Assembly: GCA_965231005.1 (NCBI GenBank)
Contig: OZ246405.1
Span: 39,204-103,203 of the forward strand
From: an uncultured Gammaproteobacteria bacterium
GTDB lineage: Bacteria > Patescibacteriota > Patescibacteriia > Magasanikbacterales > UBA922
DNA length: 64,000 nucleotides
Reading direction: 5' to 3'
The position numbers and the translations under genes are program-made. This document shows positions 5,463 to 60,806 of the stretch, in pieces. How positions within the stretch are numbered: the first letter of the stretch is position 1; the number at the start of each line of letters is the position of its first letter. Below the pieces are notes generated by a model. That model had not been told where the DNA came from. It worked only from the letters and a program-made list of their open reading frames with translations, and made no database searches.

Positions 5463-5512
5463 AAAAGCCTTTATGGCTTTTTTAGCATTTATGGCTTTTA
5501 AGGCCTTTTTAA
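5463..5512. repeat. 9-bp periodic array AAAGCCTTT ATGGCTTTT TTAGCATTT ATGGCTTTT AAGGCCTTT
   Basis: Five tandem 9-mers with consensus A(A/T)GGC(C/T)TTT directly after the stop of the DUF4012 gene. Confidence 0.6.
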
Positions 5513-8055
5513 TTTTTTTCCATAACAACACCAAGCACCTGGTCTTCATGAAGCGTTGTAGTAAACAGTGCCCCATTTACAGCAAGCTGTATGTCACCCC
5601 GAGATCGCCAAACTGGCTGCCACCCATCTGGATACACAATTTGGGAATGAAATGCACTATTGATTCCTGACTGTTTTTGAATAAACAAACTATACCTGCT
5701 TCCATGCCGCTGAGCATCTCCAAAAAATATGTCTCTCCACTTTTCTTGTGTTGTTAACTCTGCTTCTTCTTGCTCCATTTTTACTTGCATTGGAAGTTTA
5801 TAAACAAATGTCACCTCACTTGTTTCTCCAGGAAGAACACTCATCCAATTTCCAAACGTTGTTTTGCCAAATTGTTCTGACACACGCGTACCACTTTGTG
5901 CATGGATTCCTTTTTCTTTTTCAAAATCAGCCAAATGTGGATCTTGTCTATACCATTCTTCTGGAACTTTAAAGACATCTTCTGGCGGATAGGTAAATCC
6001 ATTTGCATCAAGAAGTTCAGACCCTTTTGGAACATATACACGAATATAATCTATATTTGGTCCACCATAAAATTGTTCCCCTGCCACACCAGTGTGTGTT
6101 CGTTTTATATTCACTGTATTGATGATTGATCCATCGTCCATAACTTGTGCTTGGTGTGTAATATCTTGTTCAATTTTTGCATCTGACTTTTGACCACCAA
6201 TATTTGTATTCACAACCATAAGATAATCTTGTGTTGGTGCTGTTTCAACAATTTCACCTGTCCATCCAAAAGATCGAATTTCTTTTTGTAACTCATTATC
6301 AATAAACGATGCTTGTATTTCTTTTTGTTGTGCAGCAGTATGTATTTCTGACAAGAGCCGAATTGCAGAAACAGCATCAATTTCTTTCATTCCTTCAAGG
6401 AGTTGTTCAAGCATGCTTGCAACAACTGCTTTTGGTTTATTTTCTTCTTTATCATAATTCAATTCAACTTCTTCTTGAACTGTCTGAAGTACATTGTCTG
6501 CATCGACGAGCAAATCAAATTCTTCATTTTCCATAGGACCAACAACACGAAGGAATCGTTCTAAAACTGATGCATTAATTGCAATGACTCCATCGACGGT
6601 TGCTCCTCTACCATGCTGATAAAACCATGCCATTTTTTCTGCCGAAGCAGCAAAATCTGGAAACCAATTACTATCTTGAAATTCCCAACGTCCATTTACT
6701 ACTTGTAATGGCTCTGGTGGTTCTACAAATACATTGAGTTGCCCTTTGATATCGTATGTGCCTCCTCCTGGGACTTCAATATTCATAATTTTTCCTTTTT
6801 GAACATCAACAACAGCAAAGCTTCCTAAAAATCCACCAGTTGCACGAAGTTCATGATTGTTCTGGAACATAACAAGGTATCGCTTTAATCCGTCAGCACC
6901 GAAAACCTTATTAATAACATCGACAAGGTCTGCTAAGTCACCCATGTCACTAATAAACGCAGCAAATAATAATTTAAACTCTTCAAATGCATCCTGATAT
7001 TCTGTAGGAAGAGAAGATGATTCAACATGTTGGAGATCTTCAAGTGCAAGTCGGTATTGTGGGACAGAAGCTTGTAAATGATCTTGAATAATATTGAATC
7101 GATCGGTCATATTCAAATCATCATCTTCACTTGCAGCACTCACGCCTTTTACTAAATAGGTATTACCCAATGCCAAATGATGGCCAGCACTGAGTACATG
7201 TTGTCGAGACCGAACTTGTTTTCCAATAACAGGTAGCATACTTGCTACAAAGCCTAATATTTGATGTTCTTGATCGACAAAAGACTGCGCTTCATTGAAT
7301 GATCCAAGTGCACTATTCAAGTCAAATTGTGCTTGGGCAATATTTGCCTGAAGAGCAGCGAGTGTTGAAGACTGAAGAGAAAGAAACGCATTGGTGCTTT
7401 GCTCTACCAGTTCAGCACTGTCTTGTCGAACCTTTTTATAATATCCAAATGCAGGAAATGGTAGGCTTCCAATCAACACAAGAATAACAAAAGAGGCAAT
7501 AAAACGTCGAACAGTAAATCCTTGGACAAACTGTTGTGCTCGGTTGTCTACGGCATTGAATGCACCATTCCATTTTTGTTTTACAGATGAGGCAACAGTG
7601 CGATGAAATGTTATTCGACGTCGTGCTTTTTTTACAACAATACGATCGTCTCTTTGTAAAATTGGTTGAGATACCACTCCTTGTGTTTGTTGTTTTCTAA
7701 CCATATTTCGAAGCTGAACAACCTCTTGCTCAAGACGTTCGATTTTTGTTTTCTGATTTGCTTTGCGAACCATGCTTGCCAAATCAATTCCCTCTCGGAT
7801 TGGAGCAACTTTTTCATATGCTTCTCGAAATGCTTTTACGCGCTCTGGCGCGACCTTCTTTTCTGGGCGCAAATCAACAATATGTGGTGATTGTTTTTTA
7901 TCGTGGCAAACATGAACAACGACAGATGGTTTTGTCGTTCTTTTTTTCCTCTTTTTGACATGAGGAGTACTATTGAGCGATGCTCGTTTACATGTCCGTT
8001 TTGTGTGTCCAGGACGTCTGCAAACTGAGCATTTTCGCTGCTTTTTTTCTGCCAT
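5509..8055 (-). CDS. DUF4012 domain protein with N-terminal zinc-ribbon-like CxxC...C and one TM
   Basis: 848 aa; HNHELRATGGFLGSFAVVDV block characteristic of DUF4012; CSVCRRPGHTKRTC near the N-terminus; adjacent to the GT4 cluster. Confidence 0.6.
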   Translation of the reverse strand: MAEKKQRKCSVCRRPGHTKRTCKRASLNSTPHVKKRKKRTTKPSVVVHVCHDKKQSPHIVDLRPEKKVAPERVKAFREAYEKVAPIREGIDLASMVRKANQKTKIERLEQEVVQLRNMVRKQQTQGVVSQPILQRDDRIVVKKARRRITFHRTVASSVKQKWNGAFNAVDNRAQQFVQGFTVRRFIASFVILVLIGSLPFPAFGYYKKVRQDSAELVEQSTNAFLSLQSSTLAALQANIAQAQFDLNSALGSFNEAQSFVDQEHQILGFVASMLPVIGKQVRSRQHVLSAGHHLALGNTYLVKGVSAASEDDDLNMTDRFNIIQDHLQASVPQYRLALEDLQHVESSSLPTEYQDAFEEFKLLFAAFISDMGDLADLVDVINKVFGADGLKRYLVMFQNNHELRATGGFLGSFAVVDVQKGKIMNIEVPGGGTYDIKGQLNVFVEPPEPLQVVNGRWEFQDSNWFPDFAASAEKMAWFYQHGRGATVDGVIAINASVLERFLRVVGPMENEEFDLLVDADNVLQTVQEEVELNYDKEENKPKAVVASMLEQLLEGMKEIDAVSAIRLLSEIHTAAQQKEIQASFIDNELQKEIRSFGWTGEIVETAPTQDYLMVVNTNIGGQKSDAKIEQDITHQAQVMDDGSIINTVNIKRTHTGVAGEQFYGGPNIDYIRVYVPKGSELLDANGFTYPPEDVFKVPEEWYRQDPHLADFEKEKGIHAQSGTRVSEQFGKTTFGNWMSVLPGETSEVTFVYKLPMQVKMEQEEAELTTQEKWRDIFFGDAQRHGSRYSLFIQKQSGINSAFHSQIVYPDGWQPVWRSRGDIQLAVNGALFTTTLHEDQVLGVVMEKN

Positions 8056-8099
8056 GTTCTTCGCTATTTATAGATATATTATACCATGAATCTGTAATA

Positions 8100-8290
8100 A
8101 ATAGCAGAAGAATTGGGTATAAACCGACTGCATTCAACACACCTCTCATTCTGTCATTGCGAGGAATGAAGCGAAAGCGTAATGACGAAGCAATCTAGTG
8201 GGAACTGCTAGAAAAATTCCAATGAGATTGCTTCGTCGCCCTACTGCCTATCGGCAAGTAGGGCTTCTCGCAATGACAGGAATCTTTTAA
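8100..8290. other. nested-palindrome structured element (possible cis-regulatory RNA or REP-like DNA element) in the leader of the DUF4012 gene
   Basis: Perfect 13-bp inverted pairs CTGTCATTGCGAG/CTCGCAATGACAG and GACGAAGCAATCT/AGATTGCTTCGTC, plus an internal hairpin GCCCTACTTGCC-GATA-GGCAGTAGGGC. Locally GC-rich. Confidence 0.4.
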
Positions 8291-8322
8291 TAAAAAAACC
8301 TCCCCCTGCTAAAGGGGAGGTA
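8290..8322 (-). terminator. intrinsic terminator of the GT4 gene (CCTCCCC-TTTAGCA-GGGGGAGG stem then T7 on the minus strand)
   Basis: The reverse complement reads cctcccctttagcagggggaggttttttt. Confidence 0.55.
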
Positions 8323-8341
8323 GCCGAAGGCTGGAGGGGGT

Positions 8342-12744: not shown

Positions 12745-14163
12745 TTACTCAACTTTCCTTTTTTTCAACAGGATGAAGGGGGTTTTTAAAAAAATAATAA
12801 TATCGAGTGCAAGATTCCACCGTTCAATATATAAAATATCTAATTTCATTTCTTCTTCAAATGATAAATCACTTCGGCCAGAAATTTGTGCAAGTCCAGT
12901 AATACCAGGCTTAAGTGTAAATACATGCGGATACTTATCTTTGTATTGATTTACCTCTCGTGGCTGATGAGGACGAGGACCGACAACACTCATTGATCCA
13001 CCTAGAACATTGAAAAATTGTGGCAATTCATCAATGCTCCAGCGCCGCATAAACCGACCAAACCCTGTAACGCGAGGATCATTTCCTATTTTATAAATAG
13101 GGCCCTTGCGTGTATTTGATTTTTTAATAAGTTCTTGTTCTTTTTTTTCTGCTTCAGCTCCAGCTTTTCCAAATTGTTTTCCAGTAGAGAATTTTTTAAA
13201 CATGGAACGAAACTTGAGTGTATAAAATATTCTCCCACGAAGTCCAACTCGTTCATTTTTGTAAATAATTGGAAATCCAGTTTCAAACAAAATAATAATA
13301 CTGCTGAGTACAGTAATTGGGCTTGTAATAACAATGACAAACATACTTAAGACAATATCGAGCAAGCGTTTAATAACTCTTCCCCACGCGCCAAGTGATG
13401 TGCGTCGAAGTTCTACAATTGGCACACCACCAACAGGGTGAATGATCATGTTGCTTGAATATGTTGCAAATACATCTGCTGAATATTTAAATGTAACATG
13501 AAGCCGATCGCATGCTTCAATTGCCCGTAAAGCCTCTTTTTCATGTGCACGAGGATTTGCGAAGATCATTTCATCGATCTTGGTTTTTTTCATTTTGTTT
13601 TCAGCGTCTTCATTAAATGTTTTATATGTTCCAATGACTTTGAATCCGAGCTCTTTTCTTTTTGAAAGTGTTTGTTCAATTGTTTTTGCAACACTGTCAG
13701 ATCCAATAATAATAACGCGACGAAGACCAATACCCATGCGATACATAAGTCCTTTTAATCCTCGAATAAGAATTCTTCCAAAACTTACATACACAATAGA
13801 AAGAACCCAACCAACAGCAACAAGAAAACGAGAGTCAAACAATTCTTGTGTAAACATGATGTAGACTGCAACAGCACCAAGCCCTGCTGAGCATGCAAAT
13901 AAAATGCGTGTAAGATCATGACTCAATTTTCTGTTTGGATCAGGACGGTAGAGTCCAATGAGGGCAAACAACACAAGCCAGCTTAGTGCTACCCACGATG
14001 CAATCGATGTAAAATCAAAAAGACTCAAATCAAATAACACTGGTTTGAGTGAGACTGCCCAATCTGAAAAACGAAGTGCATATGCTGTAACTGCAGCTGC
14101 CACGAGCATGAAATAATCAACTGGAACCTGCAAAATCATCAATAAAATTTCAGAACGTTTCAT
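12745..14163 (-). CDS. polyprenyl-phosphate sugar phosphotransferase (WbaP/bacterial sugar transferase family; priming enzyme)
   Basis: N-terminal TM helices; C-terminal [18 protein letters not shown] ... [21 protein letters not shown] signature. Confidence 0.8.
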
Positions 14164-14232
14164 AGAGAATCAATAATATAATTATGTTTATTTTACGCAA
14201 AAAAATGACTTTGGTCAACACAGTAACCCACC

Positions 14233-14261
14233 TTGACAAAAGGTATAAACTATGGTATATT
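14233..14261 (+). promoter_or_regulatory. sigma70-like promoter of rnpB (TTGACA-17nt-TATATT)
   Basis: Consensus -35 hexamer at 14233-14238, 17-nt spacer, -10 at 14256-14261. Confidence 0.55.
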
Positions 14262-14267
14262 CTTATG

Positions 14268-14672
14268 GTCTTGTTCATTACAGATGATCGATTTGGCCTC
14301 TGGCCAGATAGGAAAGTCCGAACTCTTCTCAATTTTATTGAGGTCGTGGAAGTGGGTAACACCCACCCACTGCATTGTGAAATGTATGTGAGGGACAGTG
14401 CCGCAGAGACAATACTAGTCCCGTCGCTCGTGAGCGACAGGACAAAAGGTGAAAAGTGTATAGAGGTTTTTGATCTCGAGTCAAAAGTTACTATACTCTA
14501 TCCTGTGGTGACACAGGTTAGTGGTAAACCCTTCCTAGAGAAAGAGCAGCGTTTTCCGTTTACGGGATTCGAAAAGTTAGCTCGTTACAGGTGTTTGGTA
14601 ACAAACATCGCAGAGAAATGATCATCACCCGCAAGGGTACAAAATTCGGCTTACGTAGTGGACAAGACAACA
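14268..14672 (+). ncRNA. rnpB: RNase P RNA (bacterial type A)
   Basis: P4 strands AGGAAAGTCCGAAC and ACAAAATTCGGCTTA show compensatory CCGAA/TTCGG changes relative to the E. coli GUCCGGGC/CCCGGCUUA. GGTAACACCCACC and CAGTGCCGCAGAGACAA match conserved RNase P blocks. P1 pairing GTCTTGTTCATTAC with GTAGTGGACAAGAC. Confidence 0.75.
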
Positions 14673-14675
14673 AAA

Positions 14676-14700
14676 AAACACCATGATTGGTGTTTTTTTG
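14676..14700 (+). terminator. intrinsic terminator of rnpB (AACACCA-tgat-TGGTGTT then T7)
   Basis: Hairpin and U-run read directly. Confidence 0.55.
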
Positions 14701-14781
14701 ATACCCTCCGAACTTCACAGTTGCGTAGCCCGAAGGGCACACATTTGTTTGGTTCGGAGTTTGTTCTCCTAGTTCTTGCAG

Positions 14782-15399
14782 CTAGGCTGCGGTGGGCTCG
14801 GACGCGACGTGGTCCTTGCAGACCGGGCAGGCTTCGTCGGTGTAGCCGTTGCTACTGCAGTGATTGCATCGGTCAAAGGTTCCTCCTCTGCTGTGCTTCT
14901 CCAGACCGCTACCACCACAGGGCTCGCACTTCTTTTTGCGGATGTTCTTGCATGCCATGCAATAAAGCTCGGCACTCACATGCTCTGCGCTGATGGTCCA
15001 GCCGTTTTTCTCGAGCCTTGCGACCACGGAGTGACGCGTCGAACACGTGTTCTTGTCGAGCATGCCATGATGACCGCCGTACGAGTAGCGCTGCATCTTG
15101 ATGGTTGCCATGTCCCAGGCAGACCTTTCAATATAGACCCTTGCCTCGAAGAAGATGTGGTACCGATCGCCATCACTGCCGGCATAGCCGAGGACGCACG
15201 AAAAGTTCCGCAGTTCTCCGTCTGGAGCACCATCGAAGTCAGGCCGACCCCACCAGGCCGCAAGACCGAAGTCTGCGTCGGTGTAGATCCTGCCGTGAAT
15301 CGCAGCGAACTCCTTGACTGCTGCGATCGCGATCGGGATCATTTGCAGACAAAAAGCCAGTCCTTGTGTGACTTTCAGGTCTTTTCCTTTCTTTGCCAT
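14782..15399 (-). CDS. hypothetical protein with C-terminal multi-CxxC zinc-ribbon region; strongly GC-atypical (~57-60% GC)
   Basis: The minus frame gives a non-repetitive protein with RBS gggggaaacaATG (start MAKKGKD). The opposite-strand ORF 14776-15456 is Ala/Val/Arg-rich low complexity typical of an antisense frame in GC-rich DNA. Confidence 0.45.
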   Translation of the reverse strand: MAKKGKDLKVTQGLAFCLQMIPIAIAAVKEFAAIHGRIYTDADFGLAAWWGRPDFDGAPDGELRNFSCVLGYAGSDGDRYHIFFEARVYIERSAWDMATIKMQRYSYGGHHGMLDKNTCSTRHSVVARLEKNGWTISAEHVSAELYCMACKNIRKKKCEPCGGSGLEKHSRGGTFDRCNHCSSNGYTDEACPVCKDHVASEPTAA

Positions 15400-15595
15400 T
15401 GTTTCCCCCATCTGAAGGGAACTCCTGGACAACATGTCCACGAGGCTGCCATCTGAGCAGCGCCCTACTTCTCACATTTGAGAGTTAAAGCGCTACTGAG
15501 ATGGATACTTGATCCTAGTATATATTGAAACATTTGTCAAGTATAGACCAAAAAACAGCCCAAAGGCTGTTTTTTTGTAAAAAAATTAAATTTTT

Positions 15596-16390
15596 TTAAT
15601 CCAAAAAATAATCCTTTTCAAGCTGCTGCACTACAGAGCCTGGTATAGTTTTTTCTAGTGAAAGTGGACTATCTCTGTGATAAAACACCTCCACAAAAAT
15701 TTCTAAAGCATCAGAGGTTCTTTCAATCTTCTCTTCACCCTCAACAGCCTCCCCCATTTCAAATAACTGCTCACTAGACTCACTTCTATCTGGATCTGTT
15801 GCTCGAGTTTGAAGTAATTCTGCAAAGGCAGAACGGACAGATTGCAAAAACTCTGGAGTGCGCAAATCATCTACTAATTTTTCTTTTCTTTCTGATGCAT
15901 CTTTTTTCATCTTATCAACATATTCTTTTGGCATTGCCTGAAAAGCAACTGCATATTCAGATTTTGGCTCACTTGAGCTAACCGCATCTATGGCAGCCTC
16001 CATTCCATGCTTGTCACGCATATGAAAAGCACCCAATTCATTACCAACACCATGACTGTCAGTTGTAATACCATGCATCCCCATAACAGCCATGATTGTA
16101 TTCTCTTCTGCGCGAGTTAAATCTCTACCTGGCGTGTTTGCGATCGCTTGTAAAAGTTCAGCAGATCTTTCACTGCTAAATTCTGGCTTGTCAGACCCCT
16201 GCTCCCAGGACAATGGATTTTCAACCAGCCACTGAACATGTCCTAAAACTCTGCCTGCTTCTCCAAAAGCTGCGGCCTCGTCTGGTTCTAAATTTTTAGG
16301 CATGAAAGGACCAGCTTTTAGAACTTTTTCATATATTCCCTCACTTGTCTCTTCCTGAGGAGGATGATGCCTGTCTCTTTTACTATCCAT
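15596..16390 (-). CDS. hypothetical protein (acidic, 264 aa) in the GC-atypical island
   Basis: ORF only. Confidence 0.4.
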   Translation of the reverse strand: MDSKRDRHHPPQEETSEGIYEKVLKAGPFMPKNLEPDEAAAFGEAGRVLGHVQWLVENPLSWEQGSDKPEFSSERSAELLQAIANTPGRDLTRAEENTIMAVMGMHGITTDSHGVGNELGAFHMRDKHGMEAAIDAVSSSEPKSEYAVAFQAMPKEYVDKMKKDASERKEKLVDDLRTPEFLQSVRSAFAELLQTRATDPDRSESSEQLFEMGEAVEGEEKIERTSDALEIFVEVFYHRDSPLSLEKTIPGSVVQQLEKDYFLD

Positions 16391-16548
16391 ATTAAAATTT
16401 TGTTATTATTAAAATGTAGTGTAAAGCTTTTTCAAATAAAAGACAAATTTGAATTTAAGATCAAAAAAACTCGTCTTCGCCATAGGCTACGCCGAGTAAA
16501 CTCTTTCATTCGATAAATCCTCTTGTAGAGTTTACTTGGCGGAGTCCT

Positions 16549-16612
16549 GCCTGCCGGTCCGATGCGCAAGCGATACGGACTCCGTACCTTGCGTCGGAGC
16601 AGGCAGGCCGAA
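16549..16612. repeat. split or degenerate copy of the GC palindrome: CCTGCCTGCCGG + 41-bp imperfect palindrome + GCAGGCAGG
   Basis: Halves of CCTGCCTGCCGGCAGGCAGG separated by tccgatgcgcaagcgatacggactccgtaccttgcgtcgga. Confidence 0.45.
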
Positions 16613-16744
16613 GGACGTAGACAAGTTCTTTTGATCTATCCCGAGCCGCACAGTTGCAGAGCTTTCGTCCGGAGGGACGATCGTTGCAGGGTAGTACGAG
16701 TCGGGTGACAGGCATATATGACAAGAACATTTGAGGAGGGTATT

Positions 16745-17149
16745 CTAGGACAGCCTAGGCTTGAGTCCATTTGTAACAGCGATCCGAAACAGATCTGCAC
16801 GAGTACTAACACCCAGACGTCTACTGATCTCCCTTGAATGTGATTCGACTGTCCGGTGGCTCACACCAAGAATTTCTCCTACTTCGCCACACGTATGACC
16901 ACTAATGATCCATGACAAAACTTCGAGCTGTCGTTTTGTCAGAGACTTGAGAGGACCTCTAGCAACAATCTGTGACATAGGACCTGAAGCAGGCTGAACT
17001 ACTCTGCTGGCGAACCTGAGTGACACACCACCAGATCTATTTCTTGAAACCTCAATTGAGAGAATAACCTTCTGACCTTCTTCCGGAATATCCAGCTCAA
17101 AGGAGTCAGCAGCGACTTTCACAGAAATTGTCTTTGTTTTAGGAGCCAT
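16745..17149 (-). CDS. LuxR/GerE-family HTH transcriptional regulator
   Basis: C-terminal LTKRQLEVLSWIISGHTCGEVGEILGVSHRTVESHSREISRRLGV is a LuxR-type HTH; GC ~50%. Confidence 0.7.
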   Translation of the reverse strand: MAPKTKTISVKVAADSFELDIPEEGQKVILSIEVSRNRSGGVSLRFASRVVQPASGPMSQIVARGPLKSLTKRQLEVLSWIISGHTCGEVGEILGVSHRTVESHSREISRRLGVSTRADLFRIAVTNGLKPRLS

Positions 17150-17205
17150 GCTACCTCCTTGTTCTTGTGTAGCCTGTTTATATCAGCAAACGCTTAGTTT
17201 GTCAA

Positions 17206-17232
17206 TTCAAAAACCCGGCTTTTCACCGGGTC
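17206..17232 (-). terminator. intrinsic terminator (CCCGGTG-aaaa-GCCGGG then T5 on the minus strand)
   Basis: The reverse complement reads cccggtgaaaagccgggttttt. Confidence 0.5.
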
Positions 17233-17239
17233 TTTTCTG

Positions 17240-17328
17240 TGCTCAGGAGAGGACTTGAACCTCCACAGGAAAAAATTCCCACAAGGCCCTCAACCTTGCG
17301 CGCCTGCCTGCCGGCAGGCAGGTCTACC
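17240..17328 (-). pseudogene. 3' portion of a degenerate tRNA-Leu(GAG) paralog (D-loop GGTAGAC to acceptor end), interrupted by the 20-bp GC palindrome
   Basis: Minus strand reads GGTAGAC-[CCTGCCTGCCGGCAGGCAGG]-CGCGC AAGG TTGAGGG CCTTG ... GGAGGTTCAAGTCCTCTCC TGAGCA. The T-arm and anticodon loop are identical to the intact tRNA-Leu at 18199-18285. Confidence 0.5.
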
Positions 17329-17574
17329 AAATCTGTTTAATAAAGTTATTTTTATCCATTCCTTCCCTGATCCAGACTTTAGATATTTCTCCCGTTTTCT
17401 AGCTTCAATTCTTGTCGAATATTTTTCGTAATATATCAAAAGAAAAGGTCTGTAAAAACGTGTCACTCTTTCTTTTCCACGCTCATGTTCTAAAACCCGT
17501 CGCTCAAGGTCATTCGTTAGACCAACATAAATATAATTCTTTTGAAGACTTTTTAATACATACACATGGTACAT
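17290..17574 (-). CDS. GIY-YIG nuclease family protein
   Basis: YVYVLKS...YIYVGLTNDLERRVLEH GIY-YIG motif. The last ~8 codons (PACRQAGAQG) are encoded by the GC palindrome and tRNA fragment. Confidence 0.7.
   Translation of the reverse strand: MYHVYVLKSLQKNYIYVGLTNDLERRVLEHERGKERVTRFYRPFLLIYYEKYSTRIEARKREKYLKSGSGKEWIKITLLNRFGRPACRQAGAQG
17303..17322. repeat. perfect 20-bp palindrome CCTGCCTGCCGGCAGGCAGG (copy 1)
   Basis: Exact self-complementary 20-mer. Identical copies at 18312-18331 and 52500-52519. Confidence 0.8.
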
Positions 17575-17627
17575 ATTCCACTCCTTAATTCACTGTGCGG
17601 AGTTAAGGACCAGATTGCAACCTTAAT

Positions 17628-18197
17628 CTACTTTTCAACCTGATAACCATGCAGGAGAGGACGATCCGGTCGAGGGATGAGCCATTTAATATTTGTCTTT
17701 TGTAGCCTTATCGCTCGTATTTCTTCCAAAGAACTCCATGCAGTAAGCAATTGGTCTGATGCTCCTTCCACGTATAATCCAAAGATGTATGAATGATCTG
17801 CAAGAGCTCCAAGCCTAGTAACCATTGCAGTAGAAATCTGATCCGAGCAAGTGTCTTTCGTTTTTCCACCAAGACTCACAAGTCCACTACCAGACTCTTC
17901 TCCAGAATAACTAAGTCCAGTTATATTTAAATCAAAATCTCTACAGAGTATTGTAAAAAATTCCGAATGTGAAGAAAGTGATTTGTTCAGTGCTATCCCA
18001 GCCCTAAGAGTAGTCCCGATACTATCACCAGAAGCGTCTTGTATCTCTTTCCTCATCTCCTCGATCGCTTCTTTATCTTGATCTGCTATTGACTGAGGTT
18101 CAACTGAGAAAATGGCACATCCAGACAAAAAGAAAATAACTAAAATAAGGCCGCAAAGAGCAGTAACAGATGAAATTTTCTTGGCTTGTAATAACAT
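17628..18197 (-). CDS. putative lipoprotein
   Basis: Signal peptide with lipobox LSGCAI; 189 aa; start codon directly abuts the tRNA-Leu 3' end. Confidence 0.5.
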   Translation of the reverse strand: MLLQAKKISSVTALCGLILVIFFLSGCAIFSVEPQSIADQDKEAIEEMRKEIQDASGDSIGTTLRAGIALNKSLSSHSEFFTILCRDFDLNITGLSYSGEESGSGLVSLGGKTKDTCSDQISTAMVTRLGALADHSYIFGLYVEGASDQLLTAWSSLEEIRAIRLQKTNIKWLIPRPDRPLLHGYQVEK

Positions 18198-18198
18198 G

Positions 18199-18285
18199 TG
18201 CGCAGGAGAGGACTTGAACCTCCACCCTGTATAACCAGGACCAGGCCCTCAACCTGGCGCGTCTACCGATTCCGCCACCTGCGCG
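18199..18285 (-). tRNA. tRNA-Leu (anticodon GAG), class II with long variable arm
   Basis: The minus strand reads GCGCAGG TG GCGG AATCGGTAGA CGCG CCAGG TTGAGGG CCTGG TCCTGGTTATACAGGGT GGAGG TTCAAGT CCTCT CCTGCGC A. All four stems pair. No encoded CCA. Confidence 0.85.
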
Positions 18286-18306
18286 TGTTTTGAATATTTT
18301 TTATTT

Positions 18307-18384
18307 TTAAATGTTGCGCGCCTGCCTGCCGGCAGGCAGGTCTACCAATGGAGTTTACCTGCCGGAGCTTTAGCGTAGGCAGGC
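18307..18384 (-). pseudogene. 5' portion of the degenerate tRNA-Leu paralog (acceptor GCTCAGG through the D-arm), containing two GC-palindrome-type insertions
   Basis: The minus strand reads GCTCAGG TG GC[CTGCCTACGCTAAAGCTCCGGCAGG]TAAACTCCATT GGTAGAC[CCTGCCTGCCGGCAGGCAGG]CGCGC. Acceptor GCTCAGG is complementary to CCTGAGC at 17241-17247. Confidence 0.45.
18312..18331. repeat. perfect 20-bp palindrome CCTGCCTGCCGGCAGGCAGG (copy 2); part of the 31-bp direct repeat GGTAGAC-palindrome-CGCGC shared with 17298-17328
   Basis: Exact match. Confidence 0.8.
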
Positions 18385-18389: not shown

Positions 18390-18496
18390 GAGCATATCTA
18401 GAAATTAAAAATTGGAAATCAGGGGTTAGGGAATACTGACAGTAATATCTTATTTAGTTCCCTAATTTCTAGTTTCTAGTTTCCAGTTTCCAATTT
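18390..18496. repeat. inverted pair of TAGTTTCC-family 8-mer arrays (GAAATTAAAAATTGGAAATCAGGGGTTAGGGAA ... TTCCCTAATTTC TAGTTTC TAGTTTCC AGTTTCC AATTTC) around a 24-bp core
   Basis: Read directly; left arm is the reverse complement orientation of the right arm. Confidence 0.6.
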
Positions 18497-18502
18497 CAAT
18501 TT

Positions 18503-28391: not shown

Positions 28392-28647
28392 ATTTCTTAG
28401 TCCACCATTTTTTTATAAAAGGAATAGAAAGTGTTGAAAGATACCACCCTACAGCTGGGACAAGTGCTGTGCGCCACGCATCTGCACTTTCAATCATAAT
28501 AAGCCAGACAGCTGCAATAAGATATGTAAGAACAAAAATGGTTACCTTGCGAAATCCACTTGTTTCCCAGGCCTTATCTGCTTCAACTTTTTTATTTCTT
28601 CCTTCAATTTTTTCTACCCTTTGTTCAAGGTTAATATTGTCTTTCAT
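28381..28647 (-). CDS. small membrane protein (88 aa), overlaps the valS start by 11 nt
   Basis: Two predicted TM helices; operon position. Confidence 0.4.
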   Translation of the reverse strand: MKDNINLEQRVEKIEGRNKKVEADKAWETSGFRKVTIFVLTYLIAAVWLIMIESADAWRTALVPAVGWYLSTLSIPFIKKWWTKKYGK

Positions 28648-28697
28648 AACTACTAGTGTAGTAAAAAAAAGCTAAAAAAGCAAGATTTCTACAAAAT

Positions 28698-28758
28698 AAA
28701 GAAAAGGCGAAAAAGCTAAAAGGCGAAAAAGCTAAAAATTCTGAAAATGCTCTAAATT
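28698..28758. repeat. 9-bp periodic array (AAAAGGCGA AAAAGCTA AAAGGCGA AAAAGCTA AAAATTCTG AAAATGCTCT), reverse orientation
   Basis: Tandem units of the AAAGCCTTT-family read on the complementary strand. Confidence 0.55.
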
Positions 28759-28821
28759 AAGTCAAAATCTCCCTAAAATTGATCTTTCTTTAGTGGACAA
28801 TCCACTGTGGGTATACAATGA

Positions 28822-28850
28822 TTGACAAAATTCGGCTGAGTTGATACAAT
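28822..28850 (+). promoter_or_regulatory. sigma70-like promoter TTGACA-17nt-TACAAT driving the GC-rich 4-gene cassette
   Basis: ttgacaaaattcggctgagttgatacaat. Confidence 0.45.
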
Positions 28851-28899
28851 AATTAACTTCCTAAACCTAGGAAGCCAAACGAACAACAAGGGGGTAACC

Positions 28900-29525: not shown

Positions 29526-29621
29526 ATGAGACAACACACAAAAAAGGAGGAGCTCCCTGCTACCACGCGGGGTCTCACATAGGTACAGTTAATAAAAGTG
29601 TATCTGTGTGAGGAGGACACA

Positions 29622-30486: not shown

Positions 30487-30487
30487 T

Positions 30488-39892: not shown

Positions 39893-40054
39893 TAAAAGGC
39901 CATAAAAGCCTAAAAAGCTAAAAAGGCCTTAAAGGCCCGGACAATACATCTCTTCTTTTTTAGTGCTTTTTTGTCTTATTTAAGCAAAAAATCAAGTTTT
40001 TAATCCTAAGCATTTAGAGCATTTATGGCCTTTACGGCATTTAAAGCCTTTTAT
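39893..40054. repeat. inverted pair of 9-bp periodic arrays (AAAAGGCCAT AAAAGCCTA AAAAGCTA AAAAGGCCTT AAAGGCCC ... TAAGCATTT AGAGCATTT ATGGCCTTT ACGGCATTT AAAGCCTTT)
   Basis: Left array 39893-39947 in reverse orientation, right array 40006-40054 forward, ~60-bp core between. Confidence 0.6.
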
Positions 40055-41977: not shown

Positions 41978-42982
41978 TCACACGACTTTCCTTTCTTCTT
42001 TTCCAATCCTTGTCATCCACTCCTGCTTAAAATACTCTCTTCTATCATTGTCATGAAATTTTAACATTTCATCACTAACAATCACATCTGTTTTGTGAGA
42101 GTCAAAATCAATATTCTTTTCTTTTAATTTTTTCAATTGAATATTCCTCAACATTCTTTCTAGTGAATCTCCAATGCTTCCACTGAGCAATGTTTCAAAA
42201 ACTCGTTGAAAGGTATTTGTAAAAACATTGTGTGAAACCTTCCACAAACCAAGCGGATTAAATGCTTCTGATGTATTTGGAAGATACTTTTTTGTCCAAG
42301 CATTTTTCTCTTTTATGACTTGCGAAACATTTGACGGATCAAAAACAGGAATAAGTTGTTCAAGCCAATATGTTAGATAAATATCAGGCTGCTCAATTGC
42401 AACAGAAGAGAGATCAAGATGACTTTCTCCTGCATAAAAACTAAGACAAATTTTATCTTTACTTTGTAAGGTTGTAATGCGTAATTTAAAAAAATGAAAA
42501 AGTAAAATAATAAAAAAACGAGCAAACCACATACGTCCATCTTTTATAACAATAAATGTATCAATATCACTCTCCTCTTTTGTTGAAATAGTGAACTGGT
42601 TGCAAACAAAAAATGCACGAACAAATGGAATAAACCGGATGATCTTTGCTGCACGCTTTGCAATCTTCATTTTTCGACGTAACAGCGAAGGCATGGATTT
42701 ACGGTTTTGAATCGTAGAACTTTGTTGAGGCAAAAAATAAAAACTTTCTTGTCTTTCAATTCTTCCAGACAACACCTCACTATCGAGCATATCCAAAAAA
42801 GCAACATACGAAATTTCCTGATTGCTACCCCACTGCCACTCGTAAAGCTCTTGGGCAGTCAATGGATAATCAAATATGCCAAAGTAAGCAATTGTTTTTG
42901 TAATTGATTCACTCATAGTATCTATAGTGTAACCCAGATCGGTTGTTATGTCACCTATAAAAAAACAACTAACAATTAACAA
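41978..42982 (-). CDS. hypothetical protein
   Basis: 334-aa ORF; possible true start at MSESITK (42913); no motif recognised. Confidence 0.4.
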   Translation of the reverse strand: MLIVSCFFIGDITTDLGYTIDTMSESITKTIAYFGIFDYPLTAQELYEWQWGSNQEISYVAFLDMLDSEVLSGRIERQESFYFLPQQSSTIQNRKSMPSLLRRKMKIAKRAAKIIRFIPFVRAFFVCNQFTISTKEESDIDTFIVIKDGRMWFARFFIILLFHFFKLRITTLQSKDKICLSFYAGESHLDLSSVAIEQPDIYLTYWLEQLIPVFDPSNVSQVIKEKNAWTKKYLPNTSEAFNPLGLWKVSHNVFTNTFQRVFETLLSGSIGDSLERMLRNIQLKKLKEKNIDFDSHKTDVIVSDEMLKFHDNDRREYFKQEWMTRIGKEERKVV

Positions 42983-43040
42983 CTAACAACCTATCTAGGA
43001 ATTGTTAATTGTTAATTGCTAGTTGTTAATTGTTGTTAAT
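42964..43040. repeat. compact inverted pair of TTGTTAA-type arrays (AACAACTAACAATTAACAACTAACAACC tatctaggaa TTGTTAATTGTTAATTGCTAGTTGTTAATTGTTGTTAATC)
   Basis: Read directly; overlaps the yidC stop. Confidence 0.55.
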
Positions 43041-45249: not shown

Positions 45250-45433
45250 AATAATTAACAATTAACAACTAACAATTAACAAATTTAATAGGGAAAGAAT
45301 ATTTAATACGAGTACGAGAACGATATCACTATCTATTATCTAATATAGAGAATAAATCAGATAAGACTGACGTCCTTTTCTAACAAAGCCTTTCTATACT
45401 AAGTTGCTAATTGTTAATTGCTAATTGTTTTTT
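45250..45433. mobile_element. MITE-like inverted-repeat element (TTGTTAA-array arms with a CTATACTAAGTTG core)
   Basis: Left TAATTAACAATTAACAACTAACAATTAACAAATTT; right CTTTCTATACTAAGTTGCTAATTGTTAATTGCTAATTG. The right-arm core is near-identical to 35371-35400. Confidence 0.5.
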
Positions 45434-48827: not shown

Positions 48828-48837
48828 ATGAAAATCA

Positions 48838-48887
48838 AGCTTTTATGGCCTTCATAGCTTTTAAAGCCTTTACGGCCTTTTTACGAT
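48838..48887. repeat. 9-bp periodic array (AAGCTTTT ATGGCCTTC ATAGCTTTT AAAGCCTTT ACGGCCTTTTT)
   Basis: Read directly. Confidence 0.6.
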
Positions 48888-49714: not shown

Positions 49715-49768
49715 AAAAGGCTAAAAAGGTCTAAAAAGTGAAAAGGCAAAAAGGTCTTTTAGACCTTC
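49715..49768. repeat. 9-bp periodic array, reverse orientation, ending in the hairpin AAGGTC-tttta-GACCTT
   Basis: AAAAGGCTA AAAAGGTCT AAAAAGTGA AAAGGCAAA AAGGTCTTTTAGACCTT. Confidence 0.55.
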
Positions 49769-49799
49769 TCGCTTTCAAAAATCTAATAACTAATAGCTA

Positions 49800-50084
49800 T
49801 TAACTAGTAACTAATGGCATCAACTCACCCTTTGCATGAAGTGCTGCCAAGTCATCATATCCACCAATAAACTTTTCTCCAATAAAAATCAACGGTACGG
49901 TCATATGACCAGTTTCTTTAATTAGTTTGTCACGAACATCTGGGTTTGCTTGCACATCGGTATCTTCAAATGGAATGTTCAGTGATGCAAAAAGTTCTTT
50001 TGCTCTGTGACAGTACGGGCAATATGGTGTTGTATATATTTTTACTTGTTTCATATTGTAGATTTCTAGGTACGGATTTTCCAT
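49800..50084 (-). CDS. glutaredoxin-family protein
   Basis: CPYC active-site motif (YTTPYCPYCHRAKELF). Confidence 0.7.
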   Translation of the reverse strand: MENPYLEIYNMKQVKIYTTPYCPYCHRAKELFASLNIPFEDTDVQANPDVRDKLIKETGHMTVPLIFIGEKFIGGYDDLAALHAKGELMPLVTS

Positions 50085-51549: not shown

Positions 51550-51668
51550 AAAATGCTTTAAAGGCCATAAAAGCCATAAATGCTGTAAAAGCTCTTGTAT
51601 TAATCAATATCACACCAAGTAAAGCCTTTAAGGCCTTTATGGCTTTTAAAGCTTTTTCAGCCTTTTAA
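51550..51668. repeat. inverted pair of 9-bp periodic arrays (left reverse orientation 51550-51596, right forward 51621-51668) around a 25-bp core
   Basis: AAATGCTTT AAAGGCCAT AAAAGCCAT AAATGCTGT AAAAGCTCT ... AAAGCCTTT AAGGCCTTT ATGGCTTTT AAAGCTTTT TCAGCCTTTT. Confidence 0.6.
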
Positions 51669-52400: not shown

Positions 52401-52404
52401 AAAA

Positions 52405-52651
52405 TCAGAAATTAGAAATTGGAAATTAGGGATCAAACTAGGAACAACTATATAGTACACAGATTACCAAGATAAAAACAGATTTACCAGGATCTGATCC
52501 CTGCCTGCCGGCAGGCAGGTGTGAAAATCCTGGTCGATCCTGGAAATCTGTGTACTATTTAATCGAAACTAGATAATATATAATTCGAAAATTTAAACTA
52601 AAACAACCTAATTTACTTCCCCAATTTCTAGTTTCTAATTTTTAATTTCCT
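52405..52651. mobile_element. compound nested palindromic element: outer arms are TAGTTTCC-type 8-mer arrays, inner arms CAGATTTACCAGGATC/GATCCTGGAAATCTG, centre is the perfect GC palindrome CCTGCCTGCCGGCAGGCAGG (52500-52519)
   Basis: Left arm CAGAAATTAGAAATTGGAAATTAGGGATC; right arm CCCAATTTCTAGTTTCTAATTTTTAATTTCC; additional pair GTACACAGAT/ATCTGTGTAC. Confidence 0.55.
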
Positions 52652-53578: not shown

Positions 53579-53628
53579 TGAGAGCTTTTAAGGCCTTTTA
53601 AGCTTTTATAGCCTTTACGGCATTTTCT
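53579..53628. repeat. 9-bp periodic array (GAGCTTTT AAGGCCTTTT AAGCTTTT ATAGCCTTT ACGGCATTTT)
   Basis: Read directly; abuts the stop of the 1742-aa gene. Confidence 0.6.
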
Positions 53629-56600
53629 AGAACCAGTCCATTGCTTTTGTAACAAACATAAATGAGTTTGCAAGGGACTTCATAATCTTGAAGAATTGTG
53701 ATACTCCTGGTGTTTCGTCAAATGGAATACTTGAACCAAGAGAACTGAAACTTGTATTTACAGAAGAATCACTATTTGATGCACAGGAGCTTGATTCATA
53801 ACTGCTCCAGCAATATCCATTACACCATCCATAACCAGCACCAGTACAGTCTGATTCTGTGTAACAATAGTTGTAATTTGATGAACAATCTGTTGATGTC
53901 CACTGAGAACTGTCACCATTAGAAGAACTACTGCCAGAATTAGAGCCGCAGGAGCTTGATTCATAACTGCTCCAGCAATATCCATTACACCAACCATAGC
54001 CAGCACCAGTACAGTCTGATTCTGTGTAACAATAGTTGTAATTTGATGAACAATCACCAGATCCAAAAGTATTACTATCTGATCCACTACCACAGTCATT
54101 TGGACAACTTCCACTGCTCTCTCCTGATTCACAAGTTCCATCATTATCACATGCTGAAGAATATGAGTCTGACGATGTATATGAGCCTTCCTGACAGCCA
54201 GTTGGACAACCATTGTCATCCCACTTACACCACTTGTCAGATGAACTTCCGTATTTACAATCATCACAAGAATTTGGTGAGCTACATGTCACTCCTGCTT
54301 TTACACAGGAACCTGTTTGACTGTTGTACTCCCAGCCATCCCATTCACTACATGAAGTGGACCAACTATCCCCTGTTGAACCTGAACTAGTAGATCCTGA
54401 TGATGAACCAGATGAATCTGAACCTGAGCTGTGAGATCCAGATGTTGAACTTCCGCACCCCGTTGCACAGCCACTACTATCCCAAACACATCCATCAGCA
54501 CATAAAGTTGAGTCACAAATTTTATCACCAGTAAAATTATTATATTGATTCAACTTACATGCAGGAGGTGCCTTACAATCTTTTGGACAATTTTCAACTG
54601 TCTCCCCATCGTCACATGTAAAGTTGTAGTTACATGGATCCTTTGGCGGTTCTTCTACAGGTGGGACATAATCTTTGTACTTACATCCTTCAGAACTAAA
54701 CCATTTACATGATGACTGTGCAAAACATGAAGAGTCTGTTGAGTAATCATCACAGTTTACAGTGGTTGGATCTGGCGTCGTGCTTGTTTCAGATGGACAA
54801 TTATCTTCATGATAATTTGATCCGTTTGTTAGATAGCCAGGATAGTTATAATCACATTTTTTCTCATTATTTAACTGACAATATCGCACGCCTGCGCTAT
54901 CCCATCTACTGTACGCAAATCCTGGACACGAATCTTTATCACCTTCATATACTCCACCAGAACAGTCTGCATAACAAGATTCTTTTGTTTCTCCATTATC
55001 ACATGTGCCATTTCCACAAGAATTTCCTGAAGAATAATCCTGACAACCAGTTGGACAACCATTGTCATCCCACTTACATGTAAGACCAGAAGAAGATCCA
55101 TATTTACAACTGTCACAGGATTTTGGTGCACTACAGGTCACACCTTTTGTAATACATGATTCTGTTTCTTTATTATATTCAAACTTCTCACCACAAGAAG
55201 GTGTGCCACTACAATCACTACAACTATCATATGTTTCTCCTGAATCGCAAGAACCATTATAGTTACAACTACCATTTTCTACAAAGTCCTGAGGACAGTT
55301 TGTTGCATCATAGTTACTTCCATTTGTTAAATAACTTGGATAATTGTAATCACACTTGAATTCAGTATTTAGCTGACAATATCTTTTACCAGCTTTATCC
55401 CATTTACTATATGCAAATCCAGGGCAGGAATTCTCATCACCTTCATATTCAGTCTTCTTACAATCAGAAGCACATGTGTCTAATTCTCCTGGAGAGCAGA
55501 TATTATCTCCACAAACATAGTCGCTAGCCCCTCCTGTACAATTAGGTATACCAAATGTTTTCCAGTTTTTATCATTACCAGCATCTGGCATCCAATAAAA
55601 TTCTGATTTTACAATTTTTTTACACTCTGCTGCAATACCAACAATATAACTGTTGTATTCACTGTCAGTTCTATCTAGAATATATGACGATTCAGAATCA
55701 CCATCGTAGAAATACCATGTATATTTTACCCACGTAGGTTTGTCATCTTTTTTCTCTACTAAAATAACATCAAAATGATCTTTACACGCTTGAATCATTT
55801 TTTCTCCAGCATCAGTTCCTCTTGCTTCACAATGTGCTACACCCTCTTCATTTGAATACACTGTTATTCCATCTGGGAATGTGTATCTAAATGGATCTGG
55901 TTTTATTTCTTCATCTTTTTCACATCTATCTGGAATGGAACAACCTTTCTCATCAGTAGTATATACAGTATGTGTTCCTTCAGGACAATACAACATGGTT
56001 GTATAATTACATACCACTTCTTCTTTAATACATTCTCCAGGAATCCAACAGCCATTGTCACTTTTAACTGGCTCACGATAAAAACCAGGAGCACAAGGAG
56101 CTACATAATATTCTGGACAAGCTAAAATTTCTTTTTCTTCACATTTTTGAGTTTTAAAATTGTAATACTTTCCATATCCACAATCATAGTCCTTTGGTTC
56201 ACATTTGTTTAAATGATCATCATAGTAAAAACCATCATCACAATGCTTATAATCAAATGGAACACAGTCACGAGCTTTTTCATCCCATCGATATCCTTGT
56301 TTACAATCTATTGAAGTTGTTTTATGGCATTCTGGAGGATAAATAAACTTTGCTTCTGCTTCATCATAATATCCTTCACATTTGTCTTTTTGATCTGGGA
56401 CACAGTAAGAAAGATCATAATCCCAGTGCATTCCCCAACCACAATTTTTAAACTCTACTGGTGGAACATAATATGGATCTTTTACACATTGTTTTATTTT
56501 TGCATCATAGTAATGTCCAGGTTGACAATCTATAAGAAAATCATCATACGTGACACAATAGCCTAGTCCATAATCCCAGTACCCTGGTGGCTGACATTCA

Positions 56601-59799: not shown

Positions 59800-59815
59800 T
59801 AATCACTAATTAATA

Positions 59816-60244
59816 ATGTCTATGGAAATAAATTACCTTGCAGTTCTCGTGACTGCATTCATTCCAATGGTCCTTGGTGCTCTTTGGTACTCACCAGTTG
59901 GATTTGGAAACACTTGGATAAAACTTACTAAGTGGACTCCAGAAGAAATTAAAAAAGCAAAAAATGATAAGGCTGCAATGAACAAGGCCTATGGTCTTGG
60001 ATTTGTTGGTGCATTGGTCCGTTCCTATGTACTTTACTACATGTTACAAATGCTAGAAGTCAGCAGTTGGCAAGCAGGAGCAATGTCAGCATTTTGGATT
60101 TGGCTTGGTTTTGTAGCAGTTGCACAGTGGAGTATGACGCTGTGGGGAAAGAATAAATCTTTCCAATTGTTTTCAATCAACACTGGTTACGAACTTGTCA
60201 CACTCATTTTAATGGGTGCTGTGCTTGGCGCTTGGATGATGTAG
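59816..60244 (+). CDS. hypothetical membrane protein (DUF-type, 4 TM)
   Basis: 142 aa, hydrophobic. Confidence 0.5.
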   Translation: MSMEINYLAVLVTAFIPMVLGALWYSPVGFGNTWIKLTKWTPEEIKKAKNDKAAMNKAYGLGFVGALVRSYVLYYMLQMLEVSSWQAGAMSAFWIWLGFVAVAQWSMTLWGKNKSFQLFSINTGYELVTLILMGAVLGAWMM

Positions 60245-60245
60245 A

Positions 60246-60385
60246 AAAAGCTCTAAATGCCGTAAAAGCTTAAGAAGCCTAAAAGGCAAAAAAACCTGTT
60301 ACTCATGCAGGTTTTTTGCTTTAACAAACACTATTAGCCAGCCTTTATGGCTTTTATAGCATTTAAAGCCTCTTGCCGCGTGGAT
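60246..60385. repeat. inverted pair of 9-bp periodic arrays flanking an intrinsic terminator (ACCTG-ttactcatg-CAGGT + T6 at 60289-60317)
   Basis: AAAAAGCTCT AAATGCCGT AAAAGCTTA AGAAGCCTA AAAGGC ... CCAGCCTTT ATGGCTTTT ATAGCATTT AAAGCCTCTT. Confidence 0.55.
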
Positions 60386-60410
60386 CGAACGTAGTGAGAT
60401 CTTTACGCGG

Positions 60411-60806
60411 TTACGGCCTTTTTATAACAATATAGGAAAGCGCCCCAATAAACCCAGCAAAAAGGTCTCCTACTGTATCAGCAACACTAACTTGATATTG
60501 AAGAGGAAAATACAGATCATGAATAAATTCATAAAATTCCCAACCAATTGCAAATGCTCCTACAGCGCAAAGAATAAATAAGTGCCACACCCATTGTGGT
60601 TTAATTTCAATATGATATTGTTTGCCAAATATTTTTTTAATGAGTACAACAGTCCATGCAGTCGCAGCCCCTCCTATAATATGCATTGGAATATCAAGAA
60701 ATGGATACAACTCATACAATCCAGTCAAATCAAGAACTGCCTGATTGAAAAGAAACACTCCAATCATTGGAGAAAACGCGTGCAATATTTTTTTAAGACT
60801 ATTCAT
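60411..60806 (-). CDS. hypothetical membrane protein
   Basis: Four TM helices. Confidence 0.45.
   Translation of the reverse strand: MNSLKKILHAFSPMIGVFLFNQAVLDLTGLYELYPFLDIPMHIIGGAATAWTVVLIKKIFGKQYHIEIKPQWVWHLFILCAVGAFAIGWEFYEFIHDLYFPLQYQVSVADTVGDLFAGFIGALSYIVIKRP

Follow-up and report, generated by a model that had tools for sequence, protein, structure and literature searches.

Arrays of five phased 9-bp units at gene boundaries in Magasanikbacteria-type genomes: a possible family of transcribed gene-flank modules

Repeats that are dispersed between genes and can form hairpins in mRNA are known from the REP, BIME and REPIN elements of Enterobacteria and Pseudomonas, where the element is a single imperfect palindrome of 20-40 bp, present in near-identical copies and associated with a RAYT transposase. 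Hairpins at gene junctions are also known as coupling or attenuator stem-loops, such as the one between the MS2 coat and replicase genes or those of leader attenuators; each of these is a unique structure and displays covariation. We report here on a family of short periodic arrays found in a 64-kb stretch of bacterial DNA (contig OZ246405.1, positions 39,204 to 103,203; hereafter the window) and in related Magasanikbacteria loci. The arrays are made of five 9-bp units and are set with a fixed polarity at stop and start codons.

The regular 9-bp phasing claimed in the preliminary description of the window, made from its letters alone, is real. Same-strand RGCHTTT cores were found at distances of 9, 18 and 27 bp 30, 23 and 13 times, respectively, far above the values given by 100 dinucleotide shuffles (0.03, 0.04 and 0.05), and a four-unit IUPAC pattern had 12 matches in the window versus none in the shuffles; the idea that chance or base composition generates the arrays was rejected on the basis of these shuffles. 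Read on its T-rich strand, the unit is N-N-R-G-C-H-T-T-T, in which G4, C5 and T7-9 are about 99% invariant and the other four positions are nearly free. The number of units, counted by relaxed extension in a pooled set of 63 arrays (from the window and from related Magasanikbacteria loci), was five in 48 cases, four in 13, and three and six in one case each. A five-unit array thus spans 45 bp, and the 9-mers that flank the 63 arrays are at background level. Identical neighbours are not enriched (2 out of 175 adjacent pairs) and adjacent units do not covary: in statistical terms, the five units of an array are drawn independently from a single motif and kept at a fixed phase. On a common DNA strand, the motif of the arrays on the start side of genes cannot be told apart from that of the arrays on the stop side (chi-square p > 0.18 for each position). 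The first position of the unit varies between genomes. It is A in 27 of the 32 window units, and never C, versus C or T in some 15 other genomes, where A was seen once. The near-palindromic unit pointed out in the preliminary description (AAGGCCTT) is therefore a property of the dialect of the window genome and does not extend to the relatives, which have C or T at position 1.

All 63 arrays are intergenic. Polarity was evaluated on the 49 arrays having at least four strict units. The T-tract end was at most 15 nt from the boundary of a coding sequence (CDS) in 33 of them; for the other end this was the case in only 9, mostly next to doubtful open reading frames (ORFs) (sign test p = 3e-4). 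At the T-tract end, 17-21 of these boundaries were start codons of same-strand genes and 12-16 were stop codons of genes on the opposite strand. In terms of the mRNA, arrays in the A-rich form start -9 to +8 nt from a stop codon, mostly at 0, and those in the U-rich form end mostly 4-7 nt before an ATG. The majority of the arrays (38 out of 63) form 19 inverted pairs, every one of which reads A-rich arm, spacer, T-rich arm, on either strand; pairs in the reverse order and neighbours in the same orientation both numbered zero (p = 4e-6). The spacers are 0-231 bp long, with no favoured length by inspection. Some pairs are back to back (spacers of 0-9 bp) between co-transcribed genes that leave no room for a promoter (L060 and L069; L-numbers designate the public 8-kb loci or contigs bearing matches), and others lie within classic operons, namely between groES and groEL (L095) and just upstream of atpC, the ATP synthase epsilon-subunit gene (L038). 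The strict polarity, the flush placement at stops and starts and the exclusive A-rich-then-T-rich order had been missed in the preliminary description.

The members of the family in the window, together with the features associated with them, are the following:

5464-5508, plus strand: single five-unit array, NNRGCHTTT on the plus strand.
39895-39939, minus strand: five-unit arm of an inverted pair, A-rich on the plus strand, 62 nt upstream of the groES start.
39940-40006, no strand: spacer (loop) of the same pair, unique sequence, 67 bp.
40007-40051, plus strand: five-unit partner arm, T-rich on the plus strand, followed by TTATTA (TAATAA on the minus strand).
48836-48880, plus strand: single five-unit array filling the gap between a methyltransferase stop (48881) and the start of a 972-aa gene (48827).
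49715-49750, minus strand: degenerate array, a weak member, which overlaps a promoter-like site and has a canonical terminator hairpin (49746-49772) beside it.
51551-51595, minus strand: five-unit arm, U-rich in the minus-strand sense, ending 4 nt before the ATG of an ABC-ATPase gene (51546).
51596-51620, no strand: spacer (loop) of the same pair, 25 bp.
51621-51665, plus strand: five-unit partner arm, with the TGA stop of a hydrolase gene (51657-51659) within its last unit.
53581-53625, plus strand: single five-unit array starting 1 nt after the TAG stop (53627) of a 1742-aa gene.
60246-60290, minus strand: five-unit arm, A-rich on the plus strand, 1 nt after the TAG stop (60242-60244) of a plus-strand DUF1761 gene.
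60288-60317, no strand: terminator-like hairpin, canonical and bidirectional (A7-CCTG ... CAGG-T6), in the spacer of this convergent-gene pair.
60338-60373, plus strand: four-unit partner arm; the convergent minus-strand gene has its stop (60411) 38 nt away.
60400-60412: one isolated unit within the last codons of a gene.
28698-28758, no strand: A-rich GC-core array of 8/16-bp period (Tandem Repeats Finder, TRF), not a member, in a stretch without confident genes.

In the sense of the minus-strand gene 5509-8055, the array at 5464-5508 reads (AAADGCYNN)5 and starts at the base after the stop (offset 0). The one at 48836-48880 touches the methyltransferase stop (offset 0) and has an offset of 8 nt to the start of the 972-aa gene, and the arm at 39895-39939 just precedes a promoter-like TTGACA/TAAGAT site (read by eye). 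These data modify the earlier inventory in several respects. The range of 4-6 units per array gives way to five units in all strong arrays of the window except 60338-60373, which has four. The region 28698-28758, which had been counted in, falls outside the family because TRF assigns it a period of 8/16 bp. At 49715-49768 there is indeed an array, which is however degenerate and overlaps the canonical terminator hairpin at 49746-49772; at 60400-60412 a unit does exist, but it is one isolated unit and not an array. The opposed reverse and forward arrays at 39893-40054, 51550-51668 and 60246-60385 proved to be inverted pairs. The location immediately after stop codons was confirmed, the arrays being intergenic and starting at most 1 nt from the stops, in agreement with the gene calls on identical public contigs; so was the reported bleeding of some arrays into the last codons of genes, as seen with the hydrolase stop at 51657, inside the last unit, and with 60400-60412, inside a gene end. 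Two side observations concern these surroundings. The 28392-30487 segment (about 2.1 kb, G+C of 0.43), which has the 28698-28758 array at its edge, contains solely overlapping ORFs on both strands, with no convincing Pfam match for the ORFs and no significant Rfam match; the segment may be of foreign origin or encode a non-coding RNA that has escaped annotation. In the 1742-aa gene, a 107-bp segment is repeated at an offset of 165 bp (53784-54055), and the L115 assembly collapses the repeat to give a 1687-aa product.

The window has a G+C content of 36%, and the minus strand carries nearly all of its genes. Two loci from Candidatus Magasanikbacteria metagenome-assembled genomes (MAGs) share its gene order, with a DNA identity of about 70%. 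ENA metagenome contigs from PRJEB17505 are 100% identical to the window, and the independent gene calls made there agree with the gene ends; the public contigs L115-L117 being identical to the window, no microevolution was visible in the strain comparison. The encoded proteins include DUF4012, DUF11 and Wzy_C (Pfam), which we take to be linked with bacteria of the candidate phyla radiation (CPR). Almost every gene of the window lacks a Shine-Dalgarno (SD) site. Two have a strong one, those for a GerE/LuxR regulator (16745-17149) and a GIY-YIG protein (17290-17574), and both are in a G+C-richer stretch. That stretch (14000-18300, G+C of 0.43-0.45) also contains the RNase P RNA gene (14272-14668) and a tRNA-Leu gene (18198-18284), and part of it may have been acquired horizontally. 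These two RNAs were the only matches in an Rfam scan of the window at gathering thresholds, so that the arrays match no known RNA family. The anti-SD motif has been found in only about half of the Parcubacteria (PMC9297842). None of the loci covered here contains a 16S rRNA gene whose 3' end could be compared with GCCUUU. Gene starts in the window are A/T-rich upstream, usually with a T at position -1 (TATG), and many neighbouring genes share a 4-nt overlap (ATGA).

To determine the distribution of the family, the four-unit pattern was scanned over 185,579 species genomes, which yielded at least 114 loci. Among the matches listed, arrays with heterogeneous units are concentrated in at least 11 MAGs of Magasanikbacteria or of the 'Patescibacteria group'; four MAGs labelled Gammaproteobacteria (L008, L036, L046 and L100) carry arrays in the C/T dialect, and the remaining matches, which are of a different nature, consist of a single 9-mer in homogeneous tandem copies. 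The Gammaproteobacteria label of L036 is probably wrong, since its proteins are 55-72% identical to, and in the same order as, those of a Magasanikbacteria contig; protein matches were weaker for L008 and L100 and there was none for L046. A metagenome scan for the A-dialect of the window returned nearly exclusively homogeneous tandem repeats, and only four heterogeneous loci. Analogous inverted 9-bp arrays, with units ACAGCCTTT/ATAGCATTT, are present in a few loci labelled Bacteroidales and in some metagenome contigs (L058 1270-1360, L107 1458-1700, L198 200-345, L220 and L129). Their position 1 is A, as in the window, and one is upstream of hisS and another adjoins a tRNA gene; no array beside a tRNA gene was found in the Magasanikbacteria-type set. 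They could be an independent analogue in another lineage, or the product of mis-binning. We take the Bacteroidales lineage, too, to lack SD sites.

Overall the family is conserved over at least 15 related genomes, and this spread over many Magasanikbacteria-type genomes is another aspect that had escaped the preliminary description. Comparison of orthologous intergenic regions, which it had proposed as a check of mobility, showed arrays that persist in place (L006/L080; L017/L035/L051), with change confined to the free positions. The genes next to the arrays are unrelated housekeeping genes, such as dnaB, groEL, infB, secA, a clpB-like gene, era, cysS, atpC, pilT and an ABC transporter gene; a regulon is improbable for this reason.

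The layout is not restricted to the 9-bp unit. The window contains 7-bp-period families in which each arm has some 4-5 units (TTARCAA/TTGYTAA, a CTAATAA type, and GAAAYTR/YARTTTC), at 42964-43034, 45253-45427, 35190-35417, 30393-30484, 49783-49815, 52402-52429, 52623-52649 and 18462-18497. An 8-bp family, TACGAAA/TTTCGTA, has two copies with similar arms and spacers in L036 (937-1062 and 2314-2435). The 7- and 8-bp families follow the 9-bp arrangement: the stop is followed by an A-rich arm, and a T-rich arm complementary to it immediately precedes the ATG. L036 provides a nearly perfect 40-bp stem, in which the downstream AUG pairs with a CAU directly after the upstream stop (z = -7.85). From 30 to 61 kb of the window, inspection showed the paired layout in most of the longer intergenic regions. 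The sharing of this layout by unrelated families, also absent from the preliminary description, suggests that the function resides in the arrangement and not in one motif. As to individual cases, the 35190-35417 element is nested, one 7-bp pair being within another. L102 has a 7-bp AAATCAA/TTTTGAT family (1084-1232 and 7130-7220), L100 has five copies of TTGTTAA immediately 5' of an ATG (4563-4601), and L051 has a further periodic array (7714-7770). Another dispersed element seems to be formed by CCTGCCTGCCGGCAGGCAGG, a perfect G+C-rich palindrome of 20 bp: it occurs three times in the window (17303-17322, 18321-18340 and 52500-52519; none expected) and also in the Magasanikbacteria MAG L071 (549-568 and 4000-4019), where one site is exact and the other has one variant base.

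The positions of promoters and terminators lead us to infer that the arrays are transcribed. Single U-rich arrays (L047, L014 and L062) are preceded by good sigma-70-like promoters, with 7-24 nt between promoter end and array, so that such an array would make up most of the 5' untranslated region (UTR). Single A-rich arrays would be in the 3' UTR, since canonical terminators come after them. Canonical hairpin-plus-T terminators were found beside or inside elements in the window (60288-60317 and 49746-49772), in L091 (3597-3630 and 7287-7313) and in L017 and L035. When folded as RNA, the pairs are predicted to form long stems interrupted about every 9 bp (z = -2.7 to -4.2).

The reading that we favour, with a probability of roughly one in three (0.35), is that the arrays are transcribed gene-flank modules and that the paired form makes an interrupted stem clamping stop to start. 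The preference for a role at the RNA level comes from the exact placement at translation signals, the exclusive A-rich-then-U-rich order and the reuse of the layout by unrelated families in a setting without SD sites. As depicted by this model, (AAA-D-G-C-Y-N-N)5 would be a 3' trailer running from the stop codon and (N-N-R-G-C-H-U-U-U)5 a 5' leader ending 4-7 nt before the AUG. When both forms are in one intergenic region (60% of cases) they would pair into a stem interrupted every 9 bp, the base of which would hold the upstream stop codon beside the downstream start codon. This stem, with its U-rich 3' arm, would hide the leader and slow or attenuate RNA polymerase; a ribosome terminating at the flush stop would then melt the base of the stem, and transcription and translation of the next gene would thereby be coupled to translation of the previous one. 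As the element reads alike on both strands, neighbouring genes would also be shielded from antisense read-through. The strict motif of each unit, the five-unit count and the genome-wide dialect imply, in addition, a trans-acting factor that would read the units one by one. An RNA-level role and a DNA-binding one are not mutually exclusive, since the reading of units by such a factor may be independent of the stem.

A number of results weigh against this model. Forty percent of the arrays are single, and they are kept as singles across species (L017, L035 and L051). Partner arms show no excess complementarity (duplex energies of -34.5 kcal/mol versus -36.1 for non-partners), and they are 0.42 identical at the four free positions versus 0.47 for non-partners. 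No compensatory change was seen at the invariant GC or TTT, and A and U are never exchanged between arms, so that the conservation is not accounted for by pairing alone. Taken by themselves, single arms fold more than shuffled sequence (z of about -3) and so are not simple unstructured landing pads. Finally, the identity of start-side and stop-side motifs on the same DNA strand fits a reader of double-stranded DNA. Two variants of an RNA role were rejected: that of an unstructured leader, as single arms fold above shuffles, and that of mini-hairpins between adjacent units of an arm, for want of covariation.

The main rival, possible but in our view not to be counted on, is that the arrays act in double-stranded DNA as a platform for a lineage-specific oligomerising protein, for example of the ribbon-helix-helix type (MetJ, omega, ParG), with one unit per subunit or dimer; once bound, the protein would mark or insulate CDS edges as a polar roadblock or boundary element. 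It explains better than RNA folding the unit statistics (independent draws at fixed phase, no covariation between arms or neighbouring units), the number of units, sharply fixed at five, the singles, the sharing of one motif by both gene ends and the genome-wide shift of position 1 (A versus C/T in about 15 relatives), as if the motif co-evolved with its reader; moreover, one geometric rule, the T-tract end faces the CDS, holds for all gene orientations. Part of the earlier proposal of an iteron-like protein-binding array survives in this form, supported by the independent units, the five-unit count and the dialect, whereas identity with iterons fails because of the many loci beside housekeeping genes. 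The same protein-binding scheme has its own difficulties: families of 7, 8 and 9 bp would oblige a very small genome to encode several such proteins, the helical repeat of DNA differs from a period of 7-9 bp, the back-to-back pairs between co-transcribed genes (L060/L069) show that there is no absolute block to transcription, and the nucleotide-exact placement at stops and starts has no obvious reason at the DNA level. Less is to be said for the pairs being solely non-canonical bidirectional intrinsic terminators or attenuators, with a long A/U-rich stem and a U3 after each GC core, and we consider this unlikely. Termination would require an A-rich-then-U-rich order on both strands, as observed; the pairs are located after genes and between convergent genes, and the predicted hairpins are stable. 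Yet the elements have strong canonical terminators right next to or within them, a consensus terminator scan called no array, the U-tract is only 3 nt and the A-U-rich base of the stem is interrupted, singles cannot form the hairpin, and pairs occur in operons that need read-through (groES/groEL in L095).

An origin as selfish dispersed repeats of the REPIN or MITE (miniature inverted-repeat transposable element) type, with internally periodic terminal repeats and with singles as decayed half-elements, appears improbable. It would account for the pair being the dominant form, with outer ends always toward the flanking genes, and for the two 8-bp copies of L036 with their similar arms and spacers; dialects are also a feature of REP/RAYT systems. 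The 9-bp pairs, however, lack near-identical copies, target-site duplications and similar spacers, their partner arms are no more alike than non-partners, and arrays are kept at orthologous sites (L006/L080; L017/L035/L051). Over at least 15 genomes, furthermore, five positions are about 99% conserved when four are nearly saturated, which indicates long-term purifying selection. It is very improbable that the arrays are uptake or self-recognition sequences for a competence machinery. The lineage dialects and the inverted pairs downstream of genes do recall the DNA uptake sequence (DUS) of Neisseria, but the arrays have five units and not one fixed 10-12-mer, they are strictly intergenic and polar relative to coding sequences, and their layout is common to other periodic families. 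We give next to no weight to a neutral by-product of replication slippage, or to coding repeats. The period is a multiple of three, and matches outside Magasanikbacteria are homogeneous tandem repeats. Against this, units are heterogeneous within arrays (only 2 of the 175 adjacent pairs are identical), their number is fixed at five, and stop codons interrupt frames that might otherwise be open, no array being inside a confident gene. An X-Ala-Phe peptide repeat, which a period of 9 with apparent synonymous wobble could have denoted, was rejected because of the stops in the frames, the lack of a confident ORF and start offsets without relation to frame.

A broader view, which we put forward tentatively and with doubt, is that Magasanikbacteria-type CPR bacteria lacking SD pairing use a distinct gene-boundary code made of five phased units, set flush at each marked stop and start codon and read, as RNA or DNA, by a multimeric protein of their own, with about one subunit per unit. 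From one lineage to another the specificity of the reader would have changed (A or C/T at the first position of the unit), and a polymerase or ribosome would meet the U-rich form on entering a gene and the A-rich form on leaving it. If true, this code would take over tasks fulfilled in model bacteria by SD sites, Rho loading sites and REP hairpins, and the five-fold reader, if real, would be a new kind of repeat-reading nucleic-acid-binding factor. CPR bacteria (Patescibacteria) represent a large share of bacterial diversity and there is almost no experimental knowledge of their gene punctuation. The array family offers a concrete signal, present in at least 15 genomes with single-nucleotide precision at stops and starts. 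It renders testable how start sites and operon coupling are specified without SD sites and how transcripts are insulated in very compact genomes; in practice, it can also serve as a marker when gene boundaries of these lineages are annotated or their sequences binned.

Besides chance and coding repeats, comparison with described systems excluded identity of the arrays with classic REPs, MITEs, iterons or canonical terminators, and it made a regulon operator improbable. Iterons resemble the arrays as phased direct repeats suggestive of unit-wise protein binding; they are, however, units of 17-22 bp clustered at one replication origin beside a rep gene, whereas the 9-bp units are dispersed over the chromosome, with at least six strong loci in the window and dozens in relatives, beside dnaB, groEL, infB, secA and an ABC transporter gene. 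The mycobacterial MIRU (mycobacterial interspersed repetitive units) are likewise intercistronic and flush between the stop and start of operon genes, but are direct repeats of 46-101 bp with small ORFs overlapping the flanking codons, and the array units carry stops and no ORF. The DUS of Neisseria and the uptake signal sequences (USS) of Pasteurellaceae, which share dialects and inverted pairs downstream of genes with the arrays, are single fixed 9-12-mers that are common inside genes too; arrays are five-unit and intergenic only, with 4 of 9 positions degenerate. A classical intrinsic terminator has an uninterrupted G+C-rich stem and at least five U within 8 nt, but here the stem is interrupted every 9 bp and each unit offers U3. 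As for MITEs, the spacers (0-231 bp) are unlike by eye, the flanks have no duplications and the arms are alike only through the generic motif. The preliminary suggestion of MITE- or REP-type elements was thus not supported: there are no terminal repeats beyond that motif, no near-identical copies and no similarity between arms above that of non-partners.

Operator arrays of ribbon-helix-helix proteins (the 8-bp metboxes of MetJ in 2-5 copies, the 7-bp heptads of omega, the boxes of the ParG tetramer) come nearer. As in the arrays, where one motif makes runs of 7-9-bp units in direct or inverted orientation, their 7-9-bp units are head-to-tail or inverted, up to about five in number, and they are read unit by unit and cooperatively. 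They are nevertheless located at the promoters of a specific regulon or plasmid locus, whereas the arrays occupy both the 5' and 3' edges of diverse housekeeping genes and are also inside operons; that half of them are at 3' ends, with functionally diverse flanking genes, argues against a regulon operator. The arrays share with REP/BIME/REPIN elements a dispersed, extragenic distribution (all are intergenic), inverted doublets (38 of 63 are paired), predicted mRNA hairpins between cistrons or after genes, and lineage variants. They differ from them in being composed of five phased 9-bp units, with arms that do not covary, copies that are not near-identical and a flush, polar placement at stops and starts. 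No transposase-like Pfam match, RAYT included, was found among the proteins scanned in the 64-kb window, the relatives being represented by 8-kb loci. With coupling and attenuator stem-loops the pairs have in common a stem base that abuts the upstream stop and lies at, or 4-7 nt before, the downstream start, a position from which a terminating ribosome would open the stem. Those stem-loops are individual structures, whereas the arrays are a generic family at many unrelated genes, also occur as single arms, and have neither compensatory changes nor partner-specific complementarity. A limited literature search found no published description of such a family, in accordance with the preliminary description, which had not recognised a described class. 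REP/BIME doublets and intercistronic coupling hairpins are its closest known counterparts, from each of which it departs in defining features, and we place it among the dispersed extragenic hairpin-forming repeats, as an apparently new form.

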